This document shows positions 2,833-36,090 of a DNA stretch of 64,000 nucleotides, piece by piece (the stretch's first letter is position 1; each line of letters starts with the position of its first letter). This DNA is from a candidate division FCPU426 bacterium (GTDB lineage Bacteria > Oederibacteriota > PGYV01 > Palsa-1178): NCBI GenBank assembly GCA_963840035.1, contig CAWIXE010000002.1, positions 320,001 to 384,000 of the forward strand. Reading direction: 5' to 3'. The notes beneath the pieces were generated by a model. The model was not told where the DNA came from, made no database searches, and worked only from the letters and a program-made list of their open reading frames with translations. Both the position numbers and the translations under genes were made by a program.

Positions 2833-5189
2833 CTAAGAAAGACCGCGTCTATCAGATAATCCTCGCGATCCTCCCGCTTTTTGTTTTCTTTCCCATGTAC
2901 TTTCAGGGTAAGCTCATATCGTGGCTGGACATGATGCATTATTTCATGCCTTTCAGGATAATGACCGCCAATGCCATACAGCACGGGGTCATGCCTTTCT
3001 GGAACCCGTACATCTACTGCGGAAACCCTCTCATGGCGAACATGCAGACGGCCGTATTTTACCCGCTGAATATTTTTTACCATGTGCTCGCGCCTGACGC
3101 GGCATTGCGGATAACCACTTATCTCATTTTCCTTGTAATGGCAATTTTTGCGTATGGTTTTTTCAGGCTTTATAAGATTTCCGAGGAGGGAAGTTTCATG
3201 GCCGCCTGCATGCTGGCGTTCGGTTTTTTTACGACAATAAAGGCCGTGGAGCTTGCAGAGATAAATGTGCTGGGGTGGATGCCCGCTGCGCTATATTTTA
3301 CGAAGAAATACGCGGAAAGCGGAAAGTCCGCGGACAAGTTCATGATACCCCTGTTCCTTGCACTGTCGCTGCTGGGCGGGCACCCGCAGTTTTTTATTTA
3401 CATCTTCACGATATTCTCGATATTCTTTATTTATGAGCTGGTATACCTCAATAAGGGGCACCGGATTGACGCCGTTAAAAATTACCTTTTGATCTGTTTT
3501 TTATTGGGGGCCCTGGCGCTTATACAGCTTTTGCCCACGGCAAACTTTATCCTTCAATCAAAAAGGGCGGTGGGGGGCATTTCTTTCGAGGAAAATATCG
3601 GCGGGTTCATGAAGTTTGAGCACCTGATGTCATTCTTTTTCCCGTTCTTAACTGATTTCTTCTCCAAACACTCGAGTTTCCTCAACTGGGTGGGTTTAAT
3701 AGACATAGGAGTATTGCCGGTGGCGCTGCTGGGCCTTGGCATGCTGAAAATGAAAGACAGAAAACTTAAAATATTGATGATGTCCGTAATTGCTGTGTCG
3801 CTCCTGTTTGTTTTCGCCGGGAACATGCCGTTTTATAAGAAAATGTATGAAAGCGTGGGATTCCTGTCTTCCATGAGGTACCATTCAAAGATAATAGTAA
3901 TTACTTACTTTTTCATCTGCTTTCTCGCGGCCGCGGGGTTTGACAGCCTTTTTTACGGGGCGGACGGGGAAGCCAAAGCCTTCTCAAAAGTTGCGCTTGC
4001 GTGCGCCGGAATAATGCTGATTATTTATCTGTTCGCGGACATTTACAGGAATTTTATACTCGGGTCGTACAGAAAAATCTTCGACCCTGCCATGAGTTTC
4101 CAGGCCACGTTTGACGCGGTGAATATCTACGCCAGATTTGCCGGAAAATTCCTGATATATACCGTTTTTCTATGCGCGTCAGCGGCCGTCTTTTACCTGG
4201 CCGGGATAAAAGGGTTAAGGAACGGTTATGTAAAAGGCGCGGCAATGGCCATCGCGGTTTCAGGGCTCTTTGTCATTCATCTTCCGGGCAACGGGAATTT
4301 TACCACGTATAAGCTCATGTCGGAAACCACAAAGCAGGCGGAATTTGTCATGGCAGACCCGGGTATGAACGGGTACCGCGTACTCGCTCCGGGCATAGCC
4401 AATCCTTTTGAGTTTGACATTGATTCAAACACCTACGAGGAGCTCTACTATTATATCAGGGATGTTTTCACACCCAACATAAACCTCTGGTATCCGTTTA
4501 AGAACGCCGAGGGATTTGATTCGCTGTCCCTGCTTTCGTTTGCCCGGGTAAAGTCTTATTTTGGCGTGATGGATAAGCCCTGGGATAAACCGGCATTTTC
4601 ACTTCTTTCTGCCAGGTACATTTCAAGCAGGTCGCCGATTTCGGGCAGGTACCTGAAACTGGCTAGTAAAGGCTCTACAGACCTGTATATGAACTCAAAC
4701 GCGCTTAAAGAAGCTTTCTTCCTGCCGGTTTCTTCGGGAGTTAAGTATGTGGCCGAAAAGGACGGATATCTGGAATTATTCAAGAAGGGTTTTAACCCTT
4801 CGAAGACCATGGTCCTTGAGGAAGCGGACAGGGCGCGGGCCGAGGCTGTAATTGAGGGCGCGGCCGGGGGCAAAACCGCGGCAGCCAGGACAGAAGTTGA
4901 TTTTTCTGATGTTGACCTGAATACCATAAAGATAAAAGTAACCTGCGGGGAAGCCGGTTTCCTCACCGTTACTGATAATTATTACCCGGGATGGAAAGCC
5001 TCAGTGGACGGAGCCCCGGCCAGGATATTTAAGTCATATACCACGTTCAAGTCGGTCTTCCTTAAGCCGGGGAGCCATACAGTGGTTTTTTATTATTCGC
5101 CGCCTGAATTTCCGCCGGCCGCGGTCGTTTCAATCACGGCCCTGCTGCTGTTAATTCCCGTGGTGCCCATGCTGCTGGTGCTGTTTTGA
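2829..5189 (+). CDS. YfhO-like polytopic GT-C glycosyltransferase
   Basis: PFWNPYIYCGNP..AN.QTAVFYP, GGHPQ, many TM helices, C-terminal DNYYPGWKASVDG motif. Confidence 0.8.
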   Translation: MTKKDRVYQIILAILPLFVFFPMYFQGKLISWLDMMHYFMPFRIMTANAIQHGVMPFWNPYIYCGNPLMANMQTAVFYPLNIFYHVLAPDAALRITTYLIFLVMAIFAYGFFRLYKISEEGSFMAACMLAFGFFTTIKAVELAEINVLGWMPAALYFTKKYAESGKSADKFMIPLFLALSLLGGHPQFFIYIFTIFSIFFIYELVYLNKGHRIDAVKNYLLICFLLGALALIQLLPTANFILQSKRAVGGISFEENIGGFMKFEHLMSFFFPFLTDFFSKHSSFLNWVGLIDIGVLPVALLGLGMLKMKDRKLKILMMSVIAVSLLFVFAGNMPFYKKMYESVGFLSSMRYHSKIIVITYFFICFLAAAGFDSLFYGADGEAKAFSKVALACAGIMLIIYLFADIYRNFILGSYRKIFDPAMSFQATFDAVNIYARFAGKFLIYTVFLCASAAVFYLAGIKGLRNGYVKGAAMAIAVSGLFVIHLPGNGNFTTYKLMSETTKQAEFVMADPGMNGYRVLAPGIANPFEFDIDSNTYEELYYYIRDVFTPNINLWYPFKNAEGFDSLSLLSFARVKSYFGVMDKPWDKPAFSLLSARYISSRSPISGRYLKLASKGSTDLYMNSNALKEAFFLPVSSGVKYVAEKDGYLELFKKGFNPSKTMVLEEADRARAEAVIEGAAGGKTAAARTEVDFSDVDLNTIKIKVTCGEAGFLTVTDNYYPGWKASVDGAPARIFKSYTTFKSVFLKPGSHTVVFYYSPPEFPPAAVVSITALLLLIPVVPMLLVLF

Positions 5190-7162
5190 AAAAAACTTAC
5201 ATACTGAAAATTATTCCCGCAGCGCTTTTTTTTCTTGCCATACTTGCTTTATACACGGGGAACATGGCGCCTTCATTTAATTCGGACGACAGCCCCGAGA
5301 CTTCAGTGGCATTTCATACGCTTGGGGTCCAGCACCCGCCCGGGTATCCATTAAATACCATGATAGGAAAAATATTCACGTTTATCCCGCTGGGCAGCAC
5401 TGCTTTCAGGGCAAACCTGATGTCCGCGTTTTTTTCTCTGCTTGCGGGTTTCATGATATACCTTCTTGCATTTTCCACGGCGAAAAAACACTTTAAGCTT
5501 GAAGAGAACGGGGAAGCCCAGGCAGCGGCGCTGATAGCCGCGGTATTTTACATGCTCGGAGCCTCGGCGTGGCTCCAGGGAAGCTTCGCGAAGGGTTCCA
5601 TATACGCGTTAAACAGTTTTCTCCTGGCTGTATGCCTGTGGGCGCTTTTCAGGGCCGGGGACGGGAAAAAATTCCTGTACCTGTTTTCATTTATATACGG
5701 GATATCCATGGGAAACCACTGGACTTCCATGGCGGTAATCGCGCCGGCGGCCCTGTTTTACCTTTTCATGAAGAGAAAAAGCCTTACGTTAAAATCGTTG
5801 ATGACCGCGGCCGCCTTTTTTATTTTTGGCTGCGGCGTATATTTATACGTTTGGATACGCAGCGCCGGGATGCCGGCATACGCGTGGGGGGACATCAAGA
5901 CGGTTAATGACTTCATATGGCTCATATCCAGGGCGCAATACTCGGGTATCGAGAACGCGCATAAGCTGTCGCATACCGCGGGGCTGCTCATGTTTTACTT
6001 AAAAAACCTGTTTTACAGCGAGTATCCGCTGTTCTTTGCGCTGCTGCTTATACCCGGCGCGTATATCCTTATCAAAAAGGATTTTGCTCAGGGCGCGGCA
6101 ATAACGGGCGCGTTCCTGCTTGTCGCGGTAAGCGTGGCGTCGTTTGCGACGCCTCCGGCAAAAACCGAGTGGATAATAAAACCCTACATGGTATCGACAT
6201 ATGTCTTTGCCGCGCTTTTCGTTTCGGCTTTTTTTTCATGGGCCGCCGGGTTCATAGGCAAAAAGGCCCGGGTGTATGCCTTAGCCGGCGCGCTCGCGGT
6301 TTTAACCGCGGCCATGGCGTTTTTCAATAATCCGGGTTATTCCAGGTATTTTATCGGATATGATTTTGCTGAAAATATATCCAAGACCCTGCCTGAAAAT
6401 TCAATAGTTTTTACTGAAGGCGACATGAATGTCGGGGCCGTACTGTATAAGACGCTTGTCGACAAAGAAAAATTCACGCCGCTCATACCTGTGGTCCTGC
6501 TTTATGACTGGTACTTAGGCCAGGTCAAACGCAATTACCCTGGCAGCGTGAACCTGCCGGAAAAAGGAAGCTCGCCCGGGGCATACATACTATCCATAAT
6601 TCAGGCTAACCCGGGAAGGCTGTTTTACTATTCAAACGTGTATAACGCCGGTTTCATAAACCCTTCAATGCTCACGCCAAACGGCCTTTTGTACAAAATC
6701 CAGGGGCCGGCCGAGCGCAGGGTCGTAAGCGATACCCCCATCGCAGTTTATTCTTTCAGGGGCTTGACAGGCAAGAGGGTTAAATATGACGAATTCACGC
6801 AGAGGCTGGTGCTGGATAATTACGCGATGGCGTTTTTTACGTTGGGGGATTCGATGCGGATGGCGAACTATTTTGGCGTGGCATCGGCTTTCTACGAACG
6901 CGGCCTGCTGTTTGCTGAAAACAGCGGCGCGTATACCAACGTGGGGCTCTGTTATTATTACATGAAAAACATGGCAAAGGCCGAAGAAAAATGGGAAAAA
7001 GCGTCCCAATTGGCCCCAGACGACCCCACAATACTCACCAACCTCGCGTTTGTTTACGCGGCAAGGAACGACAGGGCAAAAGCGAGGGAATACGCGGAAA
7101 AAGCCTTAAGGATTAACCCCGCAAACCCAACCGCGGCGCAGATTATTAAAAACCTTAAATAA
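5186..7162 (+). CDS. DUF2723/TMEM260-like membrane glycosyltransferase with C-terminal TPRs
   Basis: DDSPE...LGVQHPPGYPL...FRANLMSA, GNH and EGD motifs; TTG start overlapping upstream stop; terminal TPR repeats. Confidence 0.85.
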   Translation: MKKTYILKIIPAALFFLAILALYTGNMAPSFNSDDSPETSVAFHTLGVQHPPGYPLNTMIGKIFTFIPLGSTAFRANLMSAFFSLLAGFMIYLLAFSTAKKHFKLEENGEAQAAALIAAVFYMLGASAWLQGSFAKGSIYALNSFLLAVCLWALFRAGDGKKFLYLFSFIYGISMGNHWTSMAVIAPAALFYLFMKRKSLTLKSLMTAAAFFIFGCGVYLYVWIRSAGMPAYAWGDIKTVNDFIWLISRAQYSGIENAHKLSHTAGLLMFYLKNLFYSEYPLFFALLLIPGAYILIKKDFAQGAAITGAFLLVAVSVASFATPPAKTEWIIKPYMVSTYVFAALFVSAFFSWAAGFIGKKARVYALAGALAVLTAAMAFFNNPGYSRYFIGYDFAENISKTLPENSIVFTEGDMNVGAVLYKTLVDKEKFTPLIPVVLLYDWYLGQVKRNYPGSVNLPEKGSSPGAYILSIIQANPGRLFYYSNVYNAGFINPSMLTPNGLLYKIQGPAERRVVSDTPIAVYSFRGLTGKRVKYDEFTQRLVLDNYAMAFFTLGDSMRMANYFGVASAFYERGLLFAENSGAYTNVGLCYYYMKNMAKAEEKWEKASQLAPDDPTILTNLAFVYAARNDRAKAREYAEKALRINPANPTAAQIIKNLK

Positions 7163-7285
7163 ATTTTCAATTTTCCATTCTGAATTTTCAATTAAAACAG
7201 AGCTTTTTGCAGGGATTTTTATTTTGAGTTCTTATATTTGAGTTGTTGTGGTTGATTGAAAATATAAAATTGAAAATTCATAATT
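7162..7285. repeat. Heptamer-unit inverted repeat (ATTTTCA / TGAAAAT family), copy 1
   Basis: Left arm AATTTTCAATTTTCCATTCTGAATTTTCAATT, right arm ATTGAAAATATAAAATTGAAAATTCATAATT. Confidence 0.75.
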
Positions 7286-7302
7286 GTATTCATAAATGCC
7301 TG

Positions 7303-7331
7303 TTGAAAAATCCCCCGTTTTACTGTAAAAT
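7303..7331 (+). promoter_or_regulatory. Putative sigma70 promoter
   Basis: TTGAAA-N17-TAAAAT ahead of ATG 7372. Confidence 0.55.
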
Positions 7332-7371
7332 AACTTTGTTGTTTCATAATATCAGGGAGAGTGCGCAAATA

Positions 7372-8700
7372 ATGAAATTGTCACGTAAAATCATTATAAT
7401 TATGGCTCTATTTCTTCTTTTTTCCGCACAGCTATTCCCGGCGGGCGGAGCGGGGATAACTTCTTCTAACTTCCTTAAATTATCCCAGGGCGCAAGGCCG
7501 GCGGGCATGGGTGAGGCTTTTGTCGCGATCGCTGACGACGTCAACGCTGTTTACTGGAATCCGGCGGGATTAGCCCAGCTGACACGCAACCAGGTATGCC
7601 TGATGCATTCTGTCTGGCTTGTGGATGTAAACTTTGAATACATGGCTTACGCCCTTCCCATAAAGGGCTTCGGCACGATCGCGGCTTACGGATTATTCTT
7701 AAATGCCGGGGAAATATTCAAAACCGGGGAAACTCCCGCGGGAGATTATTTATATGACGGCGCGAAGATAAAGGCCACGGATTTTAACGTGACTGTGGCA
7801 TACGCCAAAAAATTATCGGAAATAATCGGGGATGACTCGCTTTTTGCGGACTTATCGCTCGGAATAAACGTCAATATTATCAGCGAAACCATAGCGGATG
7901 ATACCGGCGGCGGATTCGGGGTAAATATCGGCGCTTATTTTTACCCGCGCTATGAAAATTATTCCATGGGGCTGACCCTCGAGAACATCGGGGTTGCCAA
8001 TAACCGCCCGTCGCTGCCCTCGGTCGTTAAATTCGGCTTTGGCTACAGGTTCCCGCTGGAAAACGCCTTCATATCATTCACTGAAGAAGGCTCCTTCAAC
8101 TACATTGAGAATAACGCGGCAGGTTCCGTGGATATACTTTACTACCCGGTGGAAGGTTTCTTTAAGGTCAGGATGGGCGTTGAAAAGTACTGGGAACTGA
8201 ATAAATTCCACACAATAGCCTTAAGGCTCGGTTACAAATTCTTTGAAGACCTTGGGGCGCTCGCCGGTATCACGGCGGGTTTCGGCTACAGGCTTACAGT
8301 AAATAAGGAAACTACCGTTGACGTGGATTACGTTATGTCGCCTTATGCCGAGCTCGGGCTTTCCCAGAGGATATCGGTGACAGGCAAGTTCCTGGGAACC
8401 CCTGAAAGCCATTCCACTGAAAACCCGAAGGAAGCTTCCGTATATTATAAAAAAGGATATGAACTCCTTTACAAAAAACAGTTTTCCAACGCGCTTATCG
8501 AATTCTCAGAGTGCATAAAAAGATACCGCAACTACGCGCCGTCATACATGGGCATAGGCGCCTGTTTTTTAAACATGGGCAAGAAAGCCATGGCAATGAA
8601 AGCTTACGCTAAAGCCCTTGAAATCGACCCGACTAACACCAAACTTAAGGATTATGTGGAGCAGCTTAAAGCCCAGATACCGCCGGTTCCCGGAAGGTAA
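7372..8700 (+). CDS. PorV/PorQ-family outer-membrane beta-barrel with C-terminal TPR extension
   Basis: Signal peptide then FLKLSQGARPAGMGEAFVAIADDVNAVYWNPAGLA (PorV/UPF0164 motif), barrel end LGLSQRISV, then TPRs; start moved to ATG 7372 after GGGAGA. Confidence 0.85.
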   Translation: MKLSRKIIIIMALFLLFSAQLFPAGGAGITSSNFLKLSQGARPAGMGEAFVAIADDVNAVYWNPAGLAQLTRNQVCLMHSVWLVDVNFEYMAYALPIKGFGTIAAYGLFLNAGEIFKTGETPAGDYLYDGAKIKATDFNVTVAYAKKLSEIIGDDSLFADLSLGINVNIISETIADDTGGGFGVNIGAYFYPRYENYSMGLTLENIGVANNRPSLPSVVKFGFGYRFPLENAFISFTEEGSFNYIENNAAGSVDILYYPVEGFFKVRMGVEKYWELNKFHTIALRLGYKFFEDLGALAGITAGFGYRLTVNKETTVDVDYVMSPYAELGLSQRISVTGKFLGTPESHSTENPKEASVYYKKGYELLYKKQFSNALIEFSECIKRYRNYAPSYMGIGACFLNMGKKAMAMKAYAKALEIDPTNTKLKDYVEQLKAQIPPVPGR

Positions 8701-8757: not shown

Positions 8758-9753
8758 ATGAGGGTTACGATAAAGGACATAGCAAAGAGGGTGGGTGTGA
8801 CCCCTGCCACTGTTTCCATGGTCATAAACAACAGCCCCAAGATAAGCCAGAAAACAAAGGAGCTTGTGGCAAGCGCCATAAAGGAAATGAACTACCATCC
8901 TAATTATATAGGAAGAAGCCTCGTCAAAGGCAAAACCAATAACATCGCGGTTGTGGCTTCATTTTTTGCGTCGCTTTTTGCCCTTGAGTCTGTCCGCGGC
9001 ATAGAGGCGAATCTAAGGAATACCCAGTATAACCTGATACTGTATTCGACCAGAGGGCTTGAGGAAAACGAGAACGAGATGCTCCGCAGGCTTTTTTATG
9101 AACGCAGGGCCGACGGGATAATAATCATCTCGTTAAGGATGGAAAAGGAACTTCTTGACGAATTCAAGAAGGAAGGCATACCCGTAGTTTTCATAGAAGA
9201 GGTCATAGAAGGCGCGCCAACAGTAAAATTTAAGAATATAAAGGGCGCATATATGGCCACGGAATACTTTGCCAAGAATAAGAGGAAAAACATAGGGCTT
9301 ATAGTGGGGGAATCAGGATTAAACGCGGAGGAACGGCTTAAAGGCTATAAAGACGCCTTAAATGATTTTGGCATGGCATTTGACGAGAAGAATGTCGTGA
9401 GGGTGAAAAATTATAATTTCGAAGAAGGGGAAAAATGCTTAAAACAGCTCCTTAAAAAATCCCCGGATACAGACGCCATATTCTGCGCGGCCGGGGACGT
9501 GACGGCCATAGGCGTGCTTGACGCCGCAAAAGCCATGGGGGTTAAGGTGCCTGACGACATAGCGGTCATCGGGTATGACGATATTTACATATCAAACCTG
9601 ACAAACCCTTCGCTTACCACCATAAGGCAGCCCATCGCCCAGATGGGAAGGCAGGCTTTTGACGTGCTCATGGATATAGTGGAAGGCAAGACGCCGTATG
9701 AAAGCAAAATTATCAGTTTTGAGCCGGAACTCATTATCCGCGATTCAGTGTAA
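8758..9753 (+). CDS. LacI-family transcriptional regulator
   Basis: TIKDIAKRVGVTPATVS HTH; VPDDIAVIGYDD; PSLTTIRQP. Confidence 0.95.
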   Translation: MRVTIKDIAKRVGVTPATVSMVINNSPKISQKTKELVASAIKEMNYHPNYIGRSLVKGKTNNIAVVASFFASLFALESVRGIEANLRNTQYNLILYSTRGLEENENEMLRRLFYERRADGIIIISLRMEKELLDEFKKEGIPVVFIEEVIEGAPTVKFKNIKGAYMATEYFAKNKRKNIGLIVGESGLNAEERLKGYKDALNDFGMAFDEKNVVRVKNYNFEEGEKCLKQLLKKSPDTDAIFCAAGDVTAIGVLDAAKAMGVKVPDDIAVIGYDDIYISNLTNPSLTTIRQPIAQMGRQAFDVLMDIVEGKTPYESKIISFEPELIIRDSV

Positions 9754-9761: not shown

Positions 9762-10688
9762 ATGCCGCTTTCTAAAAACCGTATTTTTAAATCATTGTTT
9801 ATATCAGCGGTTTTGTTCGCGGCAATTCCTTTCAAAATATCTGCTGCCGGAAATACAGCCGGTAGTTTTCTGCTTGTAAACATTCAGGCCAGGGAAACAT
9901 CGCTCGGAGGCATATATGCCCCGTATTACGCGCGGCCCGGGGCTTCCACCATGAACCCGGCAACCCTTCAGGGAATAAAGAACAGCTATGTGATATTTTC
10001 CCATTATGCCTCTGTTTTTAACACGCACTACGAGCAGGTGCAGTATGCCTTGCCGCTGGATGTTTCCTCGTGCGCGGGAGCGTACCTGATGTATTCCGCT
10101 AACGACACTCTCTTTAGGACAAATGAATTCGGCGAGCCTGTGGAGAGGATTGAAAATTATGACGCCATAATAGGAGGGACATATTCGAGGGCCCTCAATG
10201 AAGAGTATAATATAGGGGCAAATCTGAAAGTTGTGGCTGAAAAACTTTATAACAGCACGAACTTCGGGGCGGTTATAACAGCGGGAATGCTTTACAGAAA
10301 TTATGAAAGCAGGTACACTATAGGCGCGGATATTGAAAATTTGGGGATTGGCACATCTTTCTTTAAGGAAAAGACACTGTATCCCATAGTGTTCCGGGCG
10401 GGTTACGGCACTGAAGTATATAAGTATGAGGAAGAGTATAAAATATCGCTTTACATAGAGGAACGCGTTTTTTTAAATGAGGATGAAGGCACCGAGACTT
10501 CTTTCGGGATGGAAGCCATATACAAAAAGTTTTTTGTCTTCAGGTACGGATATATTTTCGGCAGGAACGAGGGCCGGGTGGCCACGGGCGCCGGGATAAA
10601 GCTAAACGATTTTTTTGTGGATTACGCGTATCAGCCGTACTTTGTGTCCGACAACGCGCATAGGGTGACTATAAAATACATGTTTTAA
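9762..10688 (+). CDS. Divergent PorV/PorQ-family outer-membrane protein
   Basis: Signal peptide; GSFLLVNIQARETSLGG...MNPATL; C-terminal VDYAY...HRVTIKYMF ending in Phe. Confidence 0.75.
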   Translation: MPLSKNRIFKSLFISAVLFAAIPFKISAAGNTAGSFLLVNIQARETSLGGIYAPYYARPGASTMNPATLQGIKNSYVIFSHYASVFNTHYEQVQYALPLDVSSCAGAYLMYSANDTLFRTNEFGEPVERIENYDAIIGGTYSRALNEEYNIGANLKVVAEKLYNSTNFGAVITAGMLYRNYESRYTIGADIENLGIGTSFFKEKTLYPIVFRAGYGTEVYKYEEEYKISLYIEERVFLNEDEGTETSFGMEAIYKKFFVFRYGYIFGRNEGRVATGAGIKLNDFFVDYAYQPYFVSDNAHRVTIKYMF

Positions 10689-10778: not shown

Positions 10779-11360
10779 ATGGACGAACTTGAGATCATAA
10801 AGCGCGTTAAAAAAGGCGAGACAAAATATTTTGAGGAAATCATAAACAAATACAAAAAGGTCGTATTCGGCCATTGTTATAATTTTTTGCGCAACAGGGA
10901 AGACGCGGAGGACGTGACGCAGGAAGTGTTTGTCAGCGTATATAACAACCTCGCCTCTTTCAGGGGCGACTCAAAGCTCTCCACGTGGATATACAGGATA
11001 ACCATGAACAGCTGTAAGAACAGGTTAAAACAGATGCAGCGCCTGAAAGCCAATTTTATCGAGGAGTTTTATGAGCCGGGCGGCGAGGAAAGGGAAAGCC
11101 TGGTAAACGAGATACAGGAAAAGGAAGAAAAACAGCCGGACAAGGAATTTGTGTCCGATGACATGCGTAAGACCGTTTATAAAAGGATCGATGAGCTCAC
11201 GGAAGAACAAAAAAACGTGATACTTTTGCGTGATGTGGACGGGCTGTCTTATGAGGAGATCGGCCAGTTGTTGAAGCTTTCTGTTCCGGCAGTTAAATCA
11301 AAACTGTTCAGGGCAAGGGAGAATTTAAGGGAAAAGCTTCAGAAAGACAATATCTTATAA
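10779..11360 (+). CDS. ECF RNA polymerase sigma factor (SigW/RpoE-like)
   Basis: DAEDVTQEVF, FRGDSKLSTWIYRI, region 4 LSYEEIGQLLKLSVPAVKSKLFRAR; start taken at ATG 10779. Confidence 0.93.
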   Translation: MDELEIIKRVKKGETKYFEEIINKYKKVVFGHCYNFLRNREDAEDVTQEVFVSVYNNLASFRGDSKLSTWIYRITMNSCKNRLKQMQRLKANFIEEFYEPGGEERESLVNEIQEKEEKQPDKEFVSDDMRKTVYKRIDELTEEQKNVILLRDVDGLSYEEIGQLLKLSVPAVKSKLFRARENLREKLQKDNIL

Positions 11361-11400
11361 TTGTCAATTCGTTGTGTCAGGTTTTTATGTAAAAATACAG

Positions 11401-11426
11401 CGAAACTTTTTTAGCGGGTCGTTGTC
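11401..11426 (+). promoter_or_regulatory. Putative ECF promoter (anti-sigma gene)
   Basis: CGAAAC-N15-TTGTC; same motif and spacing at 21619, 25534 and 42515. Confidence 0.7.
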
Positions 11427-11454
11427 ATATATTTAACGATTGGAGGTTTAAAAA

Positions 11455-12420
11455 ATGCAAGAAATAAAATGCGAAAAACATAAAGAGCTGATTATGGAAA
11501 TGGTGGACGGTGAAATTAAAGCCGGTGACATTTCCATTGTTGAATCTCATTTGAAATCATGCAAAGAATGCGCCGATTATAAAAAAGACCTTATAAATAT
11601 GACCGTTTTTACGAATTCTATGAAAGTTGAAGCTCCGGATTTCATGGAAACAAGGATTATGGCAAGGATTGCCGCTCCAACAGCAGTTTCCGGGTTCAGG
11701 TGGTTTCCTGCATTATCATATGGAAGCACTTTTGCTGTGGCAGTCATAGCAGGCTTTCTCCTTATATATAACAAGCCTGGAACCGTTGAAGTTAATACTG
11801 CGTCAGTCAAAAAAGCTGAAAAAACAACGGTTGCGTCAGTAAAGAAAGTTACGACTGAAACTTCAAAAACAACTGTAAAATCAGTTGAAATAGCGAAAAA
11901 AGAAGCGCCTGCAGTCATTGATCCACCTAAAAATGAAGAAAAAAAGGAAGTAATTGCTTCCGCGCCATATATGGCGCCGGTTAATTCATCCAATTCAGGC
12001 ATGAGCCAGCAGGTTGTGCCGTCAGGCGGAAACAAGTCAAATGGAGTTTCGCAGGTTGAAAATAGCGGTATGGTATCGGCCGCAAGCGGATTGGACAAAG
12101 TTCCGGTTCCCACGAGAATACCTTTACTTGAAAGTGAAAAAGCGATTGTGGCGAATAACCTTATAAACCCTGACAGGGGAGAAACATCAAGAATAATGAT
12201 TAATGTTGAAGATGCCTGCAGGGTCAGGATAATGATTTACGACAAAAACATGCAGGTTGTCAAAGAGATAGTCGACGAAGACAAACTTCCGGGCAAATAT
12301 GAAGCCTTATGGGCGGGGAAAAATGACGAAAACCGCACAGTTTCACAGGGCGTATATTTTGTTTACATTCAGCTCGGGAAAAGGGTAATTAAAAAGAATA
12401 TTATGGTGGTAAAACAGTAA
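11455..12420 (+). CDS. Zinc-binding anti-sigma factor with TM helix, low-complexity linker and C-terminal FlgD-Ig/T9SS-CTD-like domain
   Basis: HLKSCKEC (HxxxCxxC), one TM helix, K/T/S-rich linker, C-terminal INPDRGE...IYDKN..VVK...WAGKND....SQGVYF....KKNIMVVKQ; directly after the ECF sigma. Confidence 0.82.
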   Translation: MQEIKCEKHKELIMEMVDGEIKAGDISIVESHLKSCKECADYKKDLINMTVFTNSMKVEAPDFMETRIMARIAAPTAVSGFRWFPALSYGSTFAVAVIAGFLLIYNKPGTVEVNTASVKKAEKTTVASVKKVTTETSKTTVKSVEIAKKEAPAVIDPPKNEEKKEVIASAPYMAPVNSSNSGMSQQVVPSGGNKSNGVSQVENSGMVSAASGLDKVPVPTRIPLLESEKAIVANNLINPDRGETSRIMINVEDACRVRIMIYDKNMQVVKEIVDEDKLPGKYEALWAGKNDENRTVSQGVYFVYIQLGKRVIKKNIMVVKQ

Positions 12421-12568: not shown

Positions 12569-15500
12569 ATGAATAAATTATTGAAGGCGTTAGGTACCTT
12601 TTTATTTATATCTGTTATTTTTTGTTATATCACGCCCGCGGCAAGCGGATACGCGACATATCAGGTGACGTACGCGGCGGGGTCGGCGCAGCTAGCGGAC
12701 TCGGCGCTGCTTGAGTCGACGTATTACCCCAACTGGAAAAGCAACTTTGTCGTGACAGCTGGGGCATACCAGAGGGTGAGGTATCCTGAAGGATTGAACA
12801 ATAACGCCGTATACGGCGGTACAGCGTCGGAAGGAATCGGATACGGGATGCTGCTTGCGGTATGGTTTGATGACCAGCCGCTGTTTAACAATTTATGGAA
12901 TTATAAGGTACAGCACTCGGTAAAAGGCGGGCTGATGGCATGGCTCGTGGACCAGAACGGAAATAACTTAGACCCGAACTCCGCGACAGACGCGGACGAA
13001 GACATAGCCATGGCGCTGATACTGGCCCACCGCAGGTGGGGAAGCTCCGGGGTTAACTACAATTCCCTTGCGAGTTTGGAAATCGGAAAGATATCGTCGC
13101 AGGACATAGACACTACGGATTTCCACCCGTACCCGGGGGATTACTGCACGCACGCAAGCAACACAAACACATACCCGTCATACTTCACGCCGGCATGGTA
13201 CCGCGAGTTCGGTATACAGAGCGGAGACACGACGACATGGAACAAGGTAATAGCAAGGACATGGACGATGCTGACCACTGGCGGAACCAGGAGCGGCACA
13301 ACGGGGCTGGCGACAGAGTTGTGCACGGCAAACGGAGGCGCGGTATCAAACATAGACAGTTACAATTCGTGCAGGATACCGTGGAGGTATTCGCTGGATT
13401 ACTGCTGGAACACGGACGCGAACGCGCTGGCGCAGATAAAGCTGAACGCGGCGTTTTTTAACGGATCAGCGACGACATGCGGAGCGGGATACGACATAAA
13501 CGCGGCAAACAACGGAGTAAGGCAGGACGCGACGCATAACGGATCAAGGGTAGGGCCGGTAACCACGGCGTTTATGTACAGCACAGCGCCGGCGGGGCAG
13601 CTGCAGGCGTTTTACAATGACGCTGTAGCGCAGCAGTCGGACACTGGACATTTTTATAACGTATCGCTGGCATTATTAGGAATGCTGCAGGCAACAGGAA
13701 ACTGCCCGAGGATGTTCGGGGCAGCACAGCCGACGCCGACGCCGAAACAGGGAGACCTGTTTGACGACTGCGAAGACGGGGACAATGTAAATATGTGGGG
13801 CGGCTACTGGTATACATACGATGACAATGATAACAATAATAAAGGCACCTCGCTTGTAGTGCCGTGGTCGGACAACCACTCGGCAACAGCGGGAAAGACG
13901 CCGACGCCGTTTTCCATGCAGGCGCCGGGATATCCGACAAGCCCGTACGGCACGGTATTTGGGGCCAGGATGACGGGAAATGTAACCACGGCATGCGCGT
14001 GGGGATTCATAGGGATGGGGTCAGGGACAAGCGCTGACAGCGGATCGCCCACATATGCGGTAAAGGACCTGACGGTATACGGGCTGGCTGCGGGAGGATT
14101 CCGTTTCAAGGTAAAAACCAATGACATTAAGCATTATACGGTAAAGATATCATGCCCGGCGTCTGTAACAAGCGCGGCGGGAGCGGATTATAATTTTGAT
14201 TTTGCCGGATCCACGGCGTGGTCGCAGGTGGACGTGCCGTTCTCGGCGCTGACACAGCCGACATGGCGCACGATAATCATGGATAAGGCGCTGGTATTGA
14301 GAAACGCGACAGACCTTCAGTGGCAGACCGTAGGCCAGCCGACAACGCAGTTTGACATAATGGTGGACGACATAGAGTTCTACCCGGCCCTGCCGGCGAC
14401 ACCTACGCCGACATATTGTGTCGGAGAAAAGCTTGACAGCATGGAAGACGGGGACAACATGAACGAGTTTGGCGGGTTCTGGTATACATACGCCAATGAC
14501 ACAGGTACGGCAAAAGCGTCGACAATATGGCCTGACTCGCCGCATGGGGTCACATTTACCATGAGCGCGCCCGGAGCAAACGGTTCCTTGTTCTGCGCGA
14601 GGATAACAGGGACGGTAAGCAATGCAACAGTGCCGTTTGTCGGGATGGGGACGAACATGAGGTCTGACGGGTCAAGCGCCAACATGGGCGGATTTATCGG
14701 GCTCACATTCTGGGCAAAAGGCGACGGAAACCTGTACAGCGTAAAATTAAAGTCTGACCCGACCGTTATAACTGGCGGCAACGAGTTCAAGTACACATTC
14801 AGGAGCACCATAGGAGCGTCCGAGGGATGGGAACAGATGAACATACCGTTCTCCATATTCACGCAGGAGAGGGGATGGGGCACAAAGACCACGGTGGCGT
14901 TAGTGCTTGCCAAACTGCAGCAAATACAGTTTGAAAGCAAGGGGCCCAGCCATACGGTTGATTTCTCAGTGGATGACGTGGAGTTTGAGTGCTCGCAGAA
15001 CTGGACTCCCACGGTAACTAAAACAATTCAGCCTCCAACAAGCACCATTACGCCCACGCATACGGTATCGCCCACATGGACCAGCTCAAATACGAAATCC
15101 GCGACGCCGACCAAGACGGACACGGCAACATATACTTCCACGGCAACAGGCACGTATACAAAATCATCCACGCCTACCGGGACATATACCAATACGCCGG
15201 CAAACACATCCACAAATACGCCGACAGGCACGAACAGCGCCACCAGGTCAGCGACGCCGACACCCACATTTACAAATTCCCCGGCAAACTCGCCGACGGA
15301 TACCCCGACGGCTACAAGCACTTCCACAAAATCTTCAACCGCGACTTCCACATATACAAATACGCCTATCAATTCCCCGACTAATACGCCGACTGTAACT
15401 GACACGGGCACGAAGACGGCCAGCCCGACGGAGTCTTCGACAAAAACAAGCACGCCGACCGTGACAGAAACCAGCTCGTTTACAAATACGCCGACAAGTT

Positions 15501-16462
15501 CTAACACGGCCACGGTAACGCCTACATTTACTCAAACCCAGACTTTCAGCAATACGCCCACGGCCACGGAGACAGGCACGACAACCGAAACATGGACTGT
15601 TTCGCCTACTTTCACGGCATCCCCTACGATATCAGAGACATATACGAACAGCCCGACATATACGGTTACGGATACAAAAACGTATACCGCTACGGCTACG
15701 CCCAGCAGCACAGGGACCAGCACCAATACAGCCACGGTTACTCCGACCGCGAGTTCCTCTGTCACGGCTACATCTTCGATAAGCCAGACTTCCACGCCGG
15801 GCAATACCTTTACATATACAAATACGCCGGAGAATACATTCACAAACACGCCGGGCAATACCGCCACATATACGAACACGCCGGTAAATACTGCCACAAA
15901 TACGCCGGTTAACACGTCAACAAACACCCCTGCTAACACGGCGACAAATACGCCTGTCAATACCGCAACGAATACTCCGGCAGATACGGCCACTTTTACC
16001 AGGACAAATACTCCTGTGGATACGGCTACTTTCACCAAGACCAATACGCCGGTTAATACCGCAACCGGAACATACACGCCCACAAGCACCATCACAAAAA
16101 CGTTATTACCCACAGCGACGGTTACATATACATCCACGCCGGACACTCAGGCTGTTGACGGATTGAAGCCGCATCCAAACCCATATAACCCTAAAAAAGG
16201 GGATCTGCTTATAGGATTCAGGGTTGCCCGGCCGGATGTGGATTCTATCACTATCAAAGTTTACACGTCGGGGCAGAGGCTTATCAGAAGTGTTACCTTG
16301 AATCAGGCCCAATCCATCATAGCCATGAATATTGGTTATATCGGATGTAAGGCGGATCTGTTTAAAAGTTTATCAAACGGCACCTATTATTACATGATAA
16401 TCGCCAAAAAAGGCGGCACAGAAACTAAATCAAAGATTGACAAAATTATAATATTAAAGTAA
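12569..16462 (+). CDS. Secreted GH8 glycoside hydrolase with 2 CBM11/CIA30-like domains, Thr-rich linker and T9SS-like C-terminal domain
   Basis: Signal peptide; GH8 motifs [11 protein letters not shown] and [10 protein letters not shown]; two [22 protein letters not shown] modules; long T/P/S linker; PHPNP...GTYYY...KIDKIIILK. Confidence 0.88.
12625..15014 (+). repeat. Direct repeat copy A (2390 bp)
   Basis: Appears identical to 16581-18970 (offset 3956); alternative-frame ORFs in the track are also identical. Confidence 0.92.
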
Positions 16463-16530: not shown

Positions 16531-19500
16531 ATGAATAAAAAATTGGTTTTTGTCCTTTTTACTATTATTGCGTGCATGTTTTATATCACGCCCGCGGCAA
16601 GCGGATACGCGACATATCAGGTGACGTACGCGGCGGGGTCGGCGCAGCTAGCGGACTCGGCGCTGCTTGAGTCGACGTATTACCCCAACTGGAAAAGCAA
16701 CTTTGTCGTGACAGCTGGGGCATACCAGAGGGTGAGGTATCCTGAAGGATTGAACAATAACGCCGTATACGGCGGTACAGCGTCGGAAGGAATCGGATAC
16801 GGGATGCTGCTTGCGGTATGGTTTGATGACCAGCCGCTGTTTAACAATTTATGGAATTATAAGGTACAGCACTCGGTAAAAGGCGGGCTGATGGCATGGC
16901 TCGTGGACCAGAACGGAAATAACTTAGACCCGAACTCCGCGACAGACGCGGACGAAGACATAGCCATGGCGCTGATACTGGCCCACCGCAGGTGGGGAAG
17001 CTCCGGGGTTAACTACAATTCCCTTGCGAGTTTGGAAATCGGAAAGATATCGTCGCAGGACATAGACACTACGGATTTCCACCCGTACCCGGGGGATTAC
17101 TGCACGCACGCAAGCAACACAAACACATACCCGTCATACTTCACGCCGGCATGGTACCGCGAGTTCGGTATACAGAGCGGAGACACGACGACATGGAACA
17201 AGGTAATAGCAAGGACATGGACGATGCTGACCACTGGCGGAACCAGGAGCGGCACAACGGGGCTGGCGACAGAGTTGTGCACGGCAAACGGAGGCGCGGT
17301 ATCAAACATAGACAGTTACAATTCGTGCAGGATACCGTGGAGGTATTCGCTGGATTACTGCTGGAACACGGACGCGAACGCGCTGGCGCAGATAAAGCTG
17401 AACGCGGCGTTTTTTAACGGATCAGCGACGACATGCGGAGCGGGATACGACATAAACGCGGCAAACAACGGAGTAAGGCAGGACGCGACGCATAACGGAT
17501 CAAGGGTAGGGCCGGTAACCACGGCGTTTATGTACAGCACAGCGCCGGCGGGGCAGCTGCAGGCGTTTTACAATGACGCTGTAGCGCAGCAGTCGGACAC
17601 TGGACATTTTTATAACGTATCGCTGGCATTATTAGGAATGCTGCAGGCAACAGGAAACTGCCCGAGGATGTTCGGGGCAGCACAGCCGACGCCGACGCCG
17701 AAACAGGGAGACCTGTTTGACGACTGCGAAGACGGGGACAATGTAAATATGTGGGGCGGCTACTGGTATACATACGATGACAATGATAACAATAATAAAG
17801 GCACCTCGCTTGTAGTGCCGTGGTCGGACAACCACTCGGCAACAGCGGGAAAGACGCCGACGCCGTTTTCCATGCAGGCGCCGGGATATCCGACAAGCCC
17901 GTACGGCACGGTATTTGGGGCCAGGATGACGGGAAATGTAACCACGGCATGCGCGTGGGGATTCATAGGGATGGGGTCAGGGACAAGCGCTGACAGCGGA
18001 TCGCCCACATATGCGGTAAAGGACCTGACGGTATACGGGCTGGCTGCGGGAGGATTCCGTTTCAAGGTAAAAACCAATGACATTAAGCATTATACGGTAA
18101 AGATATCATGCCCGGCGTCTGTAACAAGCGCGGCGGGAGCGGATTATAATTTTGATTTTGCCGGATCCACGGCGTGGTCGCAGGTGGACGTGCCGTTCTC
18201 GGCGCTGACACAGCCGACATGGCGCACGATAATCATGGATAAGGCGCTGGTATTGAGAAACGCGACAGACCTTCAGTGGCAGACCGTAGGCCAGCCGACA
18301 ACGCAGTTTGACATAATGGTGGACGACATAGAGTTCTACCCGGCCCTGCCGGCGACACCTACGCCGACATATTGTGTCGGAGAAAAGCTTGACAGCATGG
18401 AAGACGGGGACAACATGAACGAGTTTGGCGGGTTCTGGTATACATACGCCAATGACACAGGTACGGCAAAAGCGTCGACAATATGGCCTGACTCGCCGCA
18501 TGGGGTCACATTTACCATGAGCGCGCCCGGAGCAAACGGTTCCTTGTTCTGCGCGAGGATAACAGGGACGGTAAGCAATGCAACAGTGCCGTTTGTCGGG
18601 ATGGGGACGAACATGAGGTCTGACGGGTCAAGCGCCAACATGGGCGGATTTATCGGGCTCACATTCTGGGCAAAAGGCGACGGAAACCTGTACAGCGTAA
18701 AATTAAAGTCTGACCCGACCGTTATAACTGGCGGCAACGAGTTCAAGTACACATTCAGGAGCACCATAGGAGCGTCCGAGGGATGGGAACAGATGAACAT
18801 ACCGTTCTCCATATTCACGCAGGAGAGGGGATGGGGCACAAAGACCACGGTGGCGTTAGTGCTTGCCAAACTGCAGCAAATACAGTTTGAAAGCAAGGGG
18901 CCCAGCCATACGGTTGATTTCTCAGTGGATGACGTGGAGTTTGAGTGCTCGCAGAACTGGACTCCCACGGCCACCAAAACAACTCAGCCGGCCTCGCCGA
19001 CTAATACGGAATCATGGACGCCGTCACCCGCAATAACATCGACATTTACGGGTACCAGGACAAGCACGGTGACGCCGTCATTCACAAAGACTGATACGCC
19101 CTATTACAGCCCGACGGATACGCGGACACCCGTACCTCCTACGGAAACCTGGACGGCATCGCCGGCTTTTACGGCTACGGATACAATGACGCCGCTTCCA
19201 CCGACCTCCACATTCTCGGTATCGCCCATAGCATCGGCAACAAATACGCCGCTGCCGGCAACCGCGACAAATACACCGATGCCTCCGACAATGACTAATA
19301 CGCCATTGCCTCCCACATCCACAAATACGCCGATACCGCCGACGCTGACATTTACACCGATACCGCCATCTCCGACAATAACGAATACACCTGACACAAG
19401 CCTTCCGGTTGATGTGCTTATAGACGACTGCAATGATGGTGATAACGCAAACTTACACGGCGGTTACTGGTACGCGTTTGATGACGCAGGAACAGGGTTG

Positions 19501-21360
19501 TCATATACGGATCCTGTATCTGACAAACGCGCGGTTGTTGACGGCAGGCCGACAGAGACCTTTATGATGAAAGCACCTGACCATACAACAGGAATGTCAG
19601 GTGGAGCGGCCAAGGTAACCGGTGCGGTAATAAATACGGCGGCAGACATCGCGGCTGGCAAAGGCTATGGTTTTATTGGAATGGGTACTAATCTTGCCCA
19701 GCCGGAAATGCCAAAAGATATAGGCTGCTGCAGTGGAATAAGTTTCTACGCCAGAAGTTCAAGTTCCACCATGACATCTTTCAGGATGAAACTGGGACAC
19801 CCGAACGCGTTTACGCCTCCAAATCCAAGCGAGAACATGTATGGAAAAGCGTTCCCGCTGACGTCAACATGGACACTTATTACCATACCATTCAGTGACT
19901 TAACTCAGCTTCCATGGTGGGGAACAACAATTCTGAGGACAGACGCCCTGAAGTTTGTTAATTCCATACAGTTCCAGTCAACAGCTCCGGATAATACAAA
20001 TGTTGCGGGCATTGACCTTGAGGTAGACGATTTGACAATATATAACTGCGTCGGAGGCTGTATGCCTACGCCGTTACCTACAGTTGTCATACCCCCGACA
20101 CCGACTATAACACCAACGCCCAATGCGCCGCTTGTGGATTTCCTTGTGGATGACTGCACGGACGGGGATAACGCGAACAAGCTCGGAGGATACTGGTACA
20201 CATTTGATGACGCAAATGCGTCAACACATTCATATGTCTGGCCCATGTCGGACAAATGGGGCGTGATTAAGGCCGTTCCGACATATGCTTTTATCATGTC
20301 GGCGCCGGGATATAATAGCACGGGTTTTGCGGCGCAGATGACCGGAACCACGACCAATGAGCTTCTGTCAGGAACCTCATATATTGACTTCCTTGGAATG
20401 GGAACAAATCTATCGGAACCCAAAGGCCCGATACAGCTTAATTGCTGCGGAGGCGTCAGGTTCTACGCAAAGTCAGACACCCCGGGCGTAATGGCTAATT
20501 TCAGGGTAAAACTCGGCGCAACAGCCGCGTACGCACTGGCCGGAGGCGAGGGCGGGGATATGTACGGCAAGGAATTCACGGTGACAAATACATGGCAGCT
20601 TTATCAGATAGGCTTTGACAGCTTTACAGCGGAAGGCTGGGGTGCCACTAATTACCCGGGAAATCAGCCTTCAAGGGCGCAGGCTCTGGCACAGGCTGAC
20701 TCTATTCAGTTCCAGTCAACCGGACAGGGGAAGGCAAACATAGACCTCTGGGTTGATGACCTGTACCTTACAAACTGCTATTCGGGATGCGTTGCGGCAC
20801 CGCCGGCACCGACTAGCACAAACACGCCGAATATACCGGCAACAGCGACTAACACACCTTATATCGGTCCGTCAGCGACAAATACGCCTATAGTTCCGAC
20901 AGCGACAAACACGCCGTACATACCGGGCGGTCCGACAGCGACTAACACTCCTTATATACCTGGAGGCGCTACAGCAACGCCGACGGCAATGCCGGTGTCT
21001 GATGTGCTCGAAATAGTGCCCGGTACAGTCGTTGTTTATCCTAATCCGGCAATGAATGACACAGACCCGATTATAATAAGGTTCTTATTAAGAAAAGAAG
21101 CGTCTGAAGCTACAGTAAGGGTATTCACCTCAGGTATGAGGCTTGTCAGGGAGGCAAAAGTTACCCTTCCCATGTCAGGCCCGTCAGGAAATATCCTCGG
21201 AGCTATGGGGCCTGTCAGCGGCGGCGGAACCTGCTATATAGGGTTGAAATATGATTTCATCAAACCGCTTTCAAAAGGCACATATTACTTCGTCATAGAT
21301 GTTAAGAAAGGCAGTGAAACCGCAAAATCAAAAGTTGAGAAGATAATAAAACTTAAGTAA
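16531..21360 (+). CDS. Secreted GH8 glycoside hydrolase with 4 CBM11/CIA30-like domains, Thr/Pro linkers and T9SS-like C-terminal domain
   Basis: Same GH8 and first two binding modules as 12569; two further DDC.DGDNAN..GGYWY modules; YPNP...KGTYYF...KVEKIIKLK; AGGAGG RBS. Confidence 0.88.
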   Translation: MNKKLVFVLFTIIACMFYITPAASGYATYQVTYAAGSAQLADSALLESTYYPNWKSNFVVTAGAYQRVRYPEGLNNNAVYGGTASEGIGYGMLLAVWFDDQPLFNNLWNYKVQHSVKGGLMAWLVDQNGNNLDPNSATDADEDIAMALILAHRRWGSSGVNYNSLASLEIGKISSQDIDTTDFHPYPGDYCTHASNTNTYPSYFTPAWYREFGIQSGDTTTWNKVIARTWTMLTTGGTRSGTTGLATELCTANGGAVSNIDSYNSCRIPWRYSLDYCWNTDANALAQIKLNAAFFNGSATTCGAGYDINAANNGVRQDATHNGSRVGPVTTAFMYSTAPAGQLQAFYNDAVAQQSDTGHFYNVSLALLGMLQATGNCPRMFGAAQPTPTPKQGDLFDDCEDGDNVNMWGGYWYTYDDNDNNNKGTSLVVPWSDNHSATAGKTPTPFSMQAPGYPTSPYGTVFGARMTGNVTTACAWGFIGMGSGTSADSGSPTYAVKDLTVYGLAAGGFRFKVKTNDIKHYTVKISCPASVTSAAGADYNFDFAGSTAWSQVDVPFSALTQPTWRTIIMDKALVLRNATDLQWQTVGQPTTQFDIMVDDIEFYPALPATPTPTYCVGEKLDSMEDGDNMNEFGGFWYTYANDTGTAKASTIWPDSPHGVTFTMSAPGANGSLFCARITGTVSNATVPFVGMGTNMRSDGSSANMGGFIGLTFWAKGDGNLYSVKLKSDPTVITGGNEFKYTFRSTIGASEGWEQMNIPFSIFTQERGWGTKTTVALVLAKLQQIQFESKGPSHTVDFSVDDVEFECSQNWTPTATKTTQPASPTNTESWTPSPAITSTFTGTRTSTVTPSFTKTDTPYYSPTDTRTPVPPTETWTASPAFTATDTMTPLPPTSTFSVSPIASATNTPLPATATNTPMPPTMTNTPLPPTSTNTPIPPTLTFTPIPPSPTITNTPDTSLPVDVLIDDCNDGDNANLHGGYWYAFDDAGTGLSYTDPVSDKRAVVDGRPTETFMMKAPDHTTGMSGGAAKVTGAVINTAADIAAGKGYGFIGMGTNLAQPEMPKDIGCCSGISFYARSSSSTMTSFRMKLGHPNAFTPPNPSENMYGKAFPLTSTWTLITIPFSDLTQLPWWGTTILRTDALKFVNSIQFQSTAPDNTNVAGIDLEVDDLTIYNCVGGCMPTPLPTVVIPPTPTITPTPNAPLVDFLVDDCTDGDNANKLGGYWYTFDDANASTHSYVWPMSDKWGVIKAVPTYAFIMSAPGYNSTGFAAQMTGTTTNELLSGTSYIDFLGMGTNLSEPKGPIQLNCCGGVRFYAKSDTPGVMANFRVKLGATAAYALAGGEGGDMYGKEFTVTNTWQLYQIGFDSFTAEGWGATNYPGNQPSRAQALAQADSIQFQSTGQGKANIDLWVDDLYLTNCYSGCVAAPPAPTSTNTPNIPATATNTPYIGPSATNTPIVPTATNTPYIPGGPTATNTPYIPGGATATPTAMPVSDVLEIVPGTVVVYPNPAMNDTDPIIIRFLLRKEASEATVRVFTSGMRLVREAKVTLPMSGPSGNILGAMGPVSGGGTCYIGLKYDFIKPLSKGTYYFVIDVKKGSETAKSKVEKIIKLK
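16581..18970 (+). repeat. Direct repeat copy B (2390 bp)
   Basis: Matches 12625-15014. Confidence 0.92.
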
Positions 21361-21553: not shown

Positions 21554-21618
21554 AGGAATGAAACGCTATTTTACAGTATTATTGGTTTCATATAGCAAAA
21601 CCGTATCTATTATTTTAT

Positions 21619-21644
21619 CGGAACATTTGTTATAATAATTTGTC
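21619..21644 (+). promoter_or_regulatory. Putative ECF promoter with embedded extended -10
   Basis: CGGAAC-N15-TTGTC; spacer contains TGTTATAAT. Confidence 0.7.
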
Positions 21645-21703
21645 TTATATATTAAGGATATTTATGTCTTCACGTAAAAGTATTCAAAACATATGGAGAA
21701 TAC

Positions 21704-25428: not shown

Positions 25429-25533
25429 AAGGGAAAAACATTTCCCCGCAATACTTCCAAATGGCATGAAAAAGGTGTTGTTTAATGCAATTCAAATAGG
25501 TTTCGCCATGTAAAACCCCAACCCCTATTTTTT

Positions 25534-25559
25534 CGGAACTTCTGTTATAATGCGTTGTC
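25534..25559 (+). promoter_or_regulatory. Putative ECF promoter with embedded extended -10
   Basis: CGGAAC-N15-TTGTC(TAA); spacer contains TGTTATAAT. Confidence 0.72.
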
Positions 25560-25614
25560 TAATACATAAGAATAGGTCTATGTATATATTTTTTTCAGGA
25601 AGAAGGCGCTTTGC

Positions 25615-31209: not shown

Positions 31210-31224
31210 TAACGGAGGTAATAA

Positions 31225-34283: not shown

Positions 34284-34295
34284 ATATATAACCTG

Positions 34296-34323: not shown

Positions 34324-34370
34324 ACGGGCAAATAGGTGAGGGAAAAACCTATTTAAAAGGAGTAACGGAC

Positions 34371-36074: not shown

Positions 36075-36090
36075 AGTATTATTACGATAT

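Follow-up and report, generated by a model that had tools for sequence, protein, structure and literature searches.

An anti-sigma factor ending in a secretion-signal-like domain: a possible export-coupled switch for cellulase genes

FlgM is a soluble anti-sigma-28 factor that is exported whole by the type III system, and in cellulolytic clostridia an alternative sigma factor and a membrane anti-sigma factor, SigI and RsgI, govern cellulase genes. Members of the Dma family end in an 8-stranded beta-barrel of their own and have an ECF21 sigma factor as partner; they are reported to be confined to Bacteroidota (PMC10927553). In Porphyromonas gingivalis, the PorA/PorXY/SigP circuit lets a PorV-binding CTD protein feed back on the ECF sigma factor for T9SS genes (PMC7712824). 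Within the T9SS itself, the CTDs of cargo proteins pass into SprA from the periplasmic side and are bound by PorV loops in the pore, their extraction takes energy, and a nearly invariant lysine lies close to the end of type A CTDs (PMC10994853); cognate PorV-type shuttles for cargo have also been described (PMC12618676).

The window, by which we mean the whole stretch of 64,000 nucleotides analyzed, contains at 11455-12420 (forward strand) an ORF for a protein of 321 amino acids consisting of a zinc head, a transmembrane helix, a linker and a CTD-like tail. By every feature that can be assessed from sequence or model it is a ZAS anti-sigma factor, and it likely holds the neighboring ECF sigma factor in check. 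The zf-HC2/ZAS head (residues 6-40; 11470-11574, forward strand) scores 22.9 bits against PF13490 (cut-off 22.2) and carries the zinc motif residues H32-x3-C36-x2-C39, all three without variation in the 18 rows of the alignment; in structure comparison it matches RsiW (5wuq) with Z 7.3. A lone transmembrane helix follows at about residues 83-105 (11701-11769, forward strand), as judged by the AlphaFold model and by hydrophobicity, which peaks over residues 86-104 (KD 1.96), and then a disordered linker of about 120 residues (11770-12135, forward strand), conserved in length and variable in sequence, with pLDDT below 50 across residues 110-211. The extreme C-terminus (12136-12417, forward strand; ...KRVIKKNIMVVKQ) is a seven-strand FlgD-Ig/T9SS-CTD-like tail according to AlphaFold, fold matches and a tail HMM, with the strands at residues 230-318 modeled at a pLDDT of about 96. 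The input alignment for the AlphaFold model held 32 sequences, and the head was predicted to be helical. Pfam FlgD_ig matches residues 251-303 at 24.8 bits, under its cut-off of 27, and the CHU_C match is weak (16.9 bits). The N-terminus is formed by the zinc domain and then an internal signal anchor, and does not qualify as a cleavable Sec signal peptide. The HxxxCxxC head, single helix, long flexible linker and terminal FlgD-Ig/CTD-like domain had all been proposed in the preliminary description and are borne out by Pfam and AlphaFold; so is the contrast it drew with the CBM-tipped RsgI anti-sigma factors, since neither a CBM nor an RsgI N-terminal domain is among the Pfam hits.

The protein can be compared with several known regulators. 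As in SigW/RsiW, there is an HxxxCxxC head (PDB 5wuq), a single transmembrane helix and an adjacent ECF gene, with RseP present in the genome; unlike RsiW, the outer domain has a fold of the secretion-signal family and sits on a tether of about 120 residues, and a predicted ECF-type promoter directly precedes the anti-sigma gene. With Dma it shares a sigma-binding cytoplasmic head, one transmembrane helix, a long disordered tether towards the outer membrane and a proposed proteolytic release, but its own chain ends in a soluble CTD-like sandwich, a separate gene encodes the PorV-like barrel and a zinc ZAS domain forms the head. Like SigI/RsgI, the locus pairs a membrane anti-sigma factor with an alternative sigma factor and has cellulase genes as predicted targets; it differs in lacking a CBM or RsgI domain, in its diderm host and in the export-signal-family tail.

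Among 119 anti-sigma homologues, which were picked for having a tail hit, 108 have HxxxCxxC, all 119 have one transmembrane helix, and in 118 the tail lies 5 residues or fewer from the C-terminus. The linker spans 84-162 amino acids in the 77 homologues measured (10-90% range 112-143). The tail is conserved best, with 56% identity, compared with 43% in the head, 40% in the transmembrane helix and 15% in the linker. An apparent tail-less orthologue in genome G077 proved to have a frameshift inside the tail and is not a natural truncation. A separate subfamily of about 280-300 amino acids (P0133, P0140, P0144, P0147, P0150, P0153, P0157, P0161 and L051:6112-7080) has lost HxxxCxxC and kept the transmembrane helix, linker and tail; L051:6112-7080 still lies after an ECF sigma gene. 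Named homologues come from Ca. Goldiibacteriota/Goldbacteria or from loosely labelled MAGs, from which we infer that the host is likely among the cellulose-degrading Goldbacteria.

The gene order at the locus is porV-TPR, lacI, porV, ECF sigma, anti-sigma, all on the forward strand. The first gene (7243-8700; start possibly further downstream) encodes a PorV/PorQ-family barrel with C-terminal TPR (NF033709, 139.5 bits, cut-off 90), the second (8758-9753) a LacI-family regulator (PF00356 and PF13377), the third (9762-10688) a PorV-like outer-membrane barrel (NF033709, 104.6 bits, cut-off 90) and the fourth (10779-11360; a TTG start at 10761 is possible) an ECF sigma factor of 193 amino acids with Pfam Sigma70_r2 and r4_2 matches and a TIGR02937 score above cut-off. 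The preliminary description had placed the sigma/anti-sigma pair directly after two porV-like genes; one of them, 9762-10688, is indeed immediately upstream, but the lacI gene lies between the two. This five-gene order is kept in 8 of 8 related loci (the first gene being cut by a contig end in 3), and a LacI-family regulator occupies the equivalent place in all 8. Directly before the porV cluster, at 2829-7162, lie genes for YfhO-like and TMEM260-like GT-C glycosyltransferases, which may add sugars to the Thr/Pro-rich stalks of cargo proteins.

Several other features of the window deserve mention. Two GH8 genes (12569-16462 and 16531-21360) have a near-identical N-terminal part of about 800 residues and diverge in their Thr/Pro-rich linkers and CBM11-like repeats, which points to recent duplication or conversion. 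At 28792-37598, five small CBM9/CBM11-like proteins come after two large ORFs that are rich in beta structure, resemble outer-membrane proteins and have no Pfam hit, a set that could be a cellodextrin capture system. Genes seemingly split by frameshifts are found at 37778-42383 (GH9), 53076-54137 (heptosyltransferase) and 61378-63834 (an Fn3 protein whose CTD-bearing end lies just beyond the window); assembly indels are suggested, because similar frameshift splits occur elsewhere in the genome.

Since the genome holds 38-39 PorV-family genes, adjacency of a porV gene is by itself weak evidence. In the order, 23 of 24 genomes have a full-length match to a joint profile (a contig end cuts the remaining one), and so do genomes of families f16, f17, f18, f20 and f23. 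Twenty loci with near full-length matches, from the order itself and the five further families, were fetched. The sigma gene is adjacent in 19 of these 20, and a PorV-like gene is nearby in 16; of the other four, two stop at a contig end and two show no such gene. Searching with a profile of distant members added no full-length relative among the matches listed (7 hits). In the genome of the window (G000), a paralogous cassette at G000:C1:92199-103056 has the order sigma, anti-sigma with tail, porV, cargo, porV, cargo, and across the phylum the PorV association occurs in two gene orders. The sigma/anti-sigma/PorV cassette spans the phylum. SprA-like genes, for their part, occur in 92 of the 99 genomes examined from the phylum, and both results agree with the co-occurrence of architecture and SprA/PorV that the preliminary description had suggested surveying. 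Two genomes, G091 (99% complete, 160 contigs) and G029 (89%), both fragmented assemblies, have the anti-sigma factor and gave no SprA hit.

Comparison of the last ~90 residues with T9SS CTDs, as suggested in the preliminary description, put such proteins at the top. Foldseek ranked PorZ first (E 4e-5), and VIA-align gave first rank to PorU (Z 9.9, rmsd 2.4 over 91 aligned residues); PorZ scored Z 8.8 there, FlgD 8.3, the translocon-bound NucA CTD 8.3 and the mirolase CTD 7.9. As modeled, the tail matches T9SS CTDs best, by a small margin over generic Ig folds. The fold alone is indecisive, because it is a generic Ig sandwich for which 28 chains reach Z>=8, with FlgD and many unrelated proteins level with the CTDs. 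The tail sequence gave nothing significant against solved structures (best FlgD, E 0.39), and the best ESM Atlas matches, to Bacteroidota CHU_C proteins, scored 0.85-0.86, below 0.9, and serve as leads only. FlgD_ig-like domains abound, with 126,462 hits at E<=0.001. Neither TIGR04183 nor PF18962, the type A CTD models, matched the anti-sigma factor at E<=0.05 (NCBIfam) or E<=0.01 (Pfam), and the neighboring cellulase tails likewise miss both models.

Stronger support for the tail as an export-tag domain comes from its genome context. A tail HMM was seeded with the six cellulase (cargo) tails of the window and iterated with both anti-sigma factors excluded. In the first round it detected the anti-sigma tail at E 0.04 only; it converged on 99 proteins of the genome, about three of which are fused to PorV or have no signal peptide, and then scored the anti-sigma tail at 54 bits (E 4e-15). 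By sequence, the tail is thus assigned to the CTD-like domain family that ends these 99 other proteins, and fold matches and HMM together uphold the earlier view of it as a CTD-family domain. Copying of the tail from the neighboring cellulases was considered and rejected, given the first-round E value and the separate positions of the adjacent cellulase tails in a weakly resolved tree; in that tree the anti-sigma tails, 17 of 17, cluster together with a single cassette cargo at support 88. A flagellar role was also rejected: true flgD genes are found elsewhere, and a FlgD_ig-like tail ends many signal-peptide proteins. The two true flgD-like genes lie at G000:C2:1061464 and C3:310233, and the second adjoins an ECF sigma/ZAS pair.

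The tails differ at one position near their end. A lysine 5 residues before the terminal basic residue occurs in 0 of 48 members of the subfamily of this anti-sigma factor, in 63 of 68 other such anti-sigma factors and in 48 of the 84 cargo tails that could be anchored (a further 15 could not). We take it to be the probable counterpart of the T9SS CTD lysine in motif E of the last strand (RemZ K1110). In the 48-member subfamily, lysine is found at -7 in 46 and at -6 in 34.

The export route to which such a tail could be directed is represented in the window. A gene at 54859-61356 (forward strand) encodes an SprA/Sov-like translocon of 2165 amino acids that matches TIGR04189 with 188.2 bits, below the cut-off of 200 (E 1.5e-55); it is the only SprA-like locus found in the genome, which is 98% complete and encodes about 97 CTD proteins. 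Of 38 PorV-like genes, 21 lie directly after a CTD gene, suggesting cargo-specific shuttles like the cognate ones of PMC12618676, and most cellulase cargo is without an adjacent porV. One PorV-family gene, at G000:C2:65239-66183 and in G077:C1 at ~287000 (L065), scores best in the family and has no cargo gene beside it, and the ECF motif described below accompanies it in both genomes; it is a candidate general shuttle for orphan cargo. At 45328-48731 of the window, a PorV-Ig-OmpA fusion is followed by a TPR and PD40 protein, a pair that resembles the TPR/WD40/OmpA domain set of PorE, split and barrel-fused.

The structural model of the barrel 9762-10688 has PorV of the SprA translocon as its best match (8gl6_F, E 3e-12). 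In a quick tree of 65 barrels, the 24 cassette-associated PorVs form one clade (SH-aLRT 93, below the 95 mark), which takes in 3 of the 38 paralogues of G000, among them 9762-10688; the porV-TPR gene 7243-8700 falls outside it. Judged by these sequences, barrel 9762-10688 is a likely candidate for a dedicated partner of the anti-sigma tail, and the clade could be explained by co-inheritance alone.

Compared with the Bacteroidota T9SS with its type A CTDs, PorV and SprA (PMC10994853, PMC10202324), the system described here shares a C-terminal seven-strand sandwich and SprA-like and PorV-like genes. It differs in the FlgD_ig-type sequence of the tail, in a signal anchor instead of a cleavable signal peptide and in its 38-39 PorV paralogues. 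For the motor, ring and sortase, GldL, GldM, GldN and Peptidase_C25 (PorU-type peptidase) gave no match in the 98% complete genome, the control genomes being equally silent. Pulling by the machine, one of the two means of release in the preliminary description, is weakened because GldL, GldM and GldN gave no match (with the same silence in the controls). As for proteolysis, the other means, RseP is present in the genome and two ORFs, judged by eye from their sequences, look like HtrA-type proteases.

A predicted ECF promoter lies before the anti-sigma gene at 11400-11430 (forward strand), with -35 GAAAC, a spacer of 16 nt and -10 TGTC (motif 11402-11426). We take GAAAC-N16-TGTC to resemble sigma-E-type promoters. 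It occurs at the equivalent place in orthologous loci, where 19 distinct sites were counted with its own excluded (occurrences, not a fraction of loci). The window contains 2 motif matches versus 0.11 expected. Further predicted ECF promoters, all on the forward strand, lie at 21618-21648 before the GH9 and CTD gene 21704-25177, at 25533-25563 before the GH9 and CTD gene 25615-28518, and at 42514-42544 before the CTD gene 42603-45059.

A promoter matrix built from other genomes only was used to scan G000, and CTD genes lie directly behind 6 of the 13 top sites (P 3e-6). A loosened pattern, set after the matrix hits had been seen, is found upstream of 14 of 99 CTD genes versus 14 of 2613 others (P 8e-14); other spacer lengths gave 5-8 genes with 0-1 CTD genes among them, and the reverse strand gave 0 CTD genes. 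Among the 14 non-CTD genes are the anti-sigma gene, a porV and two that are probably the front parts of CTD genes broken by frameshifts. For replication in G077, from another family, 52 of 53 sites were followed, the anti-sigma factor's own being dropped, and a strict class, CGRAACT, was fixed before the downstream genes were looked at. Of 23 strict sites, 15 precede a CTD gene, and for 17 a CTD gene lies within two genes; of 29 looser sites, 2 precede a CTD gene. The background of CTD genes is 99 of 2712 in G000, a rate for G000 and not for G077. One strict site in G077 precedes a porV that has the motif in G000 too. In G089 the motif showed no excess over the reversed-pattern control (33 vs 32).

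The motif targets include GH9, GH8, GH44, GH5 and GH16 enzymes. The motif is missing directly upstream of 85 of the 99 CTD genes. Both neighboring GH8 genes are among these, and a sigma-70-like site lies before the first of them. No motif was found before the sprA gene cluster (45328, sprA) either. The paralogous sigma factor, 37% identical, has similar GGAAC sites upstream in several genomes; the regulon is therefore not assignable to the cassette sigma factor alone, and both sigma factors may share it. Cargo genes are what the export-coupled switch of the preliminary description would be expected to govern, and in G000 and G077 they are what the ECF-type promoter marks. Because this promoter precedes many tail-bearing cellulase genes and the anti-sigma factor shares their tail domain, enzyme production is likely tied to outer-membrane export. 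A gene with the ECF motif upstream at G000:C2:260042-261334 (L124) encodes a serpin with a likely signal peptide. Serpins protect secreted enzymes in cellulosomes, and this one may do the same here.

The best reading of these data is a FlgM-like export checkpoint that works by docking and proteolysis, to which we give a little less than an even chance. The zinc head would hold the neighboring ECF sigma factor, and the linker, at about 120 residues, is likely long enough to cross the periplasm and reach the pore. There the export-tag-like tail would dock in the SprA-like pore, on the PorV-like barrel that is likely dedicated to it. Once a working export route took up the tail, cleavage would follow and free the sigma factor, with HtrA-type proteases as candidates for the first cut and RseP presumably making the second; engagement of the tail must end in cleavage or release, because an anchored chain cannot exit whole. 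The freed sigma factor is predicted to transcribe the tail-bearing cellulases and other cargo. New cargo would then compete for the pore, and fresh inhibitor would be made from the anti-sigma factor's own promoter, so that the circuit would damp itself by negative feedback. Points against this reading are the generic Ig fold of the tail, its miss of the type A CTD models and its lack of the lysine at -5, the motor and sortase searches without a match (controls silent too), the two fragmented genomes without an SprA hit, the modest support for the PorV clade, the G089 result and the many CTD genes that lack the motif. The proposed logic is that of FlgM and sigma-28, in which a working exporter removes the inhibitor of the genes for its own substrates and the inhibitor gene is also a target; unlike FlgM, the anti-sigma factor here is a membrane-anchored ZAS protein beside an ECF sigma factor and would need to be cleaved.

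A serious rival, which we nevertheless think unlikely, is substrate sensing across both membranes in a two-piece version of the Dma design. The tail would be held by its partner PorV-like barrel, and contact of the barrel with cellulose or its products would change it, leading to cleavage and to cellulase synthesis, as in RsgI with its CBM. A regulon rich in GH5/8/9/16/44 enzymes, the LacI-type regulator fixed in the cluster, the conserved linker length and the dedicated PorV clade would all suit such a sensor, and Dma1 has the same plan of head, transmembrane helix and tether (PMC10927553). However, the anti-sigma factor has no CBM, and a tail that was exported while anchored would presumably leave the linker threaded in the SprA ring, to judge from the structures of PMC10994853. 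The cassette is also spread over families whose cellulase content was not part of the comparison.

The opposite sign of control, a sensor of overload or jamming, is quite unlikely in our view. Here the tail would be a protected decoy that is not exported, shielded by a periplasmic or outer-membrane partner, and unexported cargo would displace it and free the sigma factor when export fails. That none of the 48 subfamily members has the terminal-strand lysine is what a decoy might show, and the silence of the motor searches (in the control genomes as well) and the conserved porV with a promoter in two genomes point the same way; feedback of this sign has been proposed for PorA (PMC7712824). Against this, the paralogous family retains the lysine in 63 of 68 members, and the predicted targets are mostly large cargo, which would worsen a jam. 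The PorA circuit is like the present one in linking a CTD-bearing protein to an ECF sigma factor, but PorA is a surface protein that acts through a two-component system, whereas here the CTD is fused to the anti-sigma factor and the predicted targets are mainly cargo. A switch that turns on when export works, and not when it is jammed, is more sensible because the regulon is mostly large cargo with no site before the sprA cluster.

That the protein is an ordinary RsiW-type envelope-stress anti-sigma factor, which took an Ig domain from the abundant CTD pool and has no link to export, is the least likely of these readings: the abundance of FlgD_ig-like domains, the generic fold, the density of PorV genes in the genome and the two genomes without an SprA hit would allow it, but the tail is held at the C-terminus in all but one of 119 homologues, the PorV link persists across the phylum in two gene orders, and the promoter motif is enriched before CTD genes and not before stress genes.

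In the literature searched, in which subscription journals are little covered, we found no description of an anti-sigma factor with a T9SS-like CTD or of a T9SS in Goldbacteria. The main text and part of the supplement of the ECF reclassification paper contain no passage on an architecture of zinc head, transmembrane helix and CTD tail. Validated cellulases have been described from Goldbacteria, with no export route given in the available part of that paper (PMC7031533).

If the checkpoint reading is right, one protein would couple transcription to secretion capacity, a logic known until now mainly from flagella. It would also mean that a T9SS-like route is active beyond the FCB group, in bacteria whose cellulases have been validated (PMC7031533). 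With the predicted promoter and the list of targets, the idea can be put to the test in a heterologous host although the organism itself is uncultured, and both would help as sequence tags in the search for secreted cellulases among these genomes. More tentatively, and with rather less confidence than an even chance would imply, we suggest that a stripped-down, phylum-wide T9SS-like route, made up of SprA and dozens of cargo-specific PorV barrels with no known motor, may report its own throughput to transcription, as the first FlgM-type checkpoint for an outer-membrane translocon. The anti-sigma factor would then be a test substrate, equipped with a genuine export tag and with a PorV shuttle of its own, that is torn or cut on extraction and thereby licenses the cellulase regulon.
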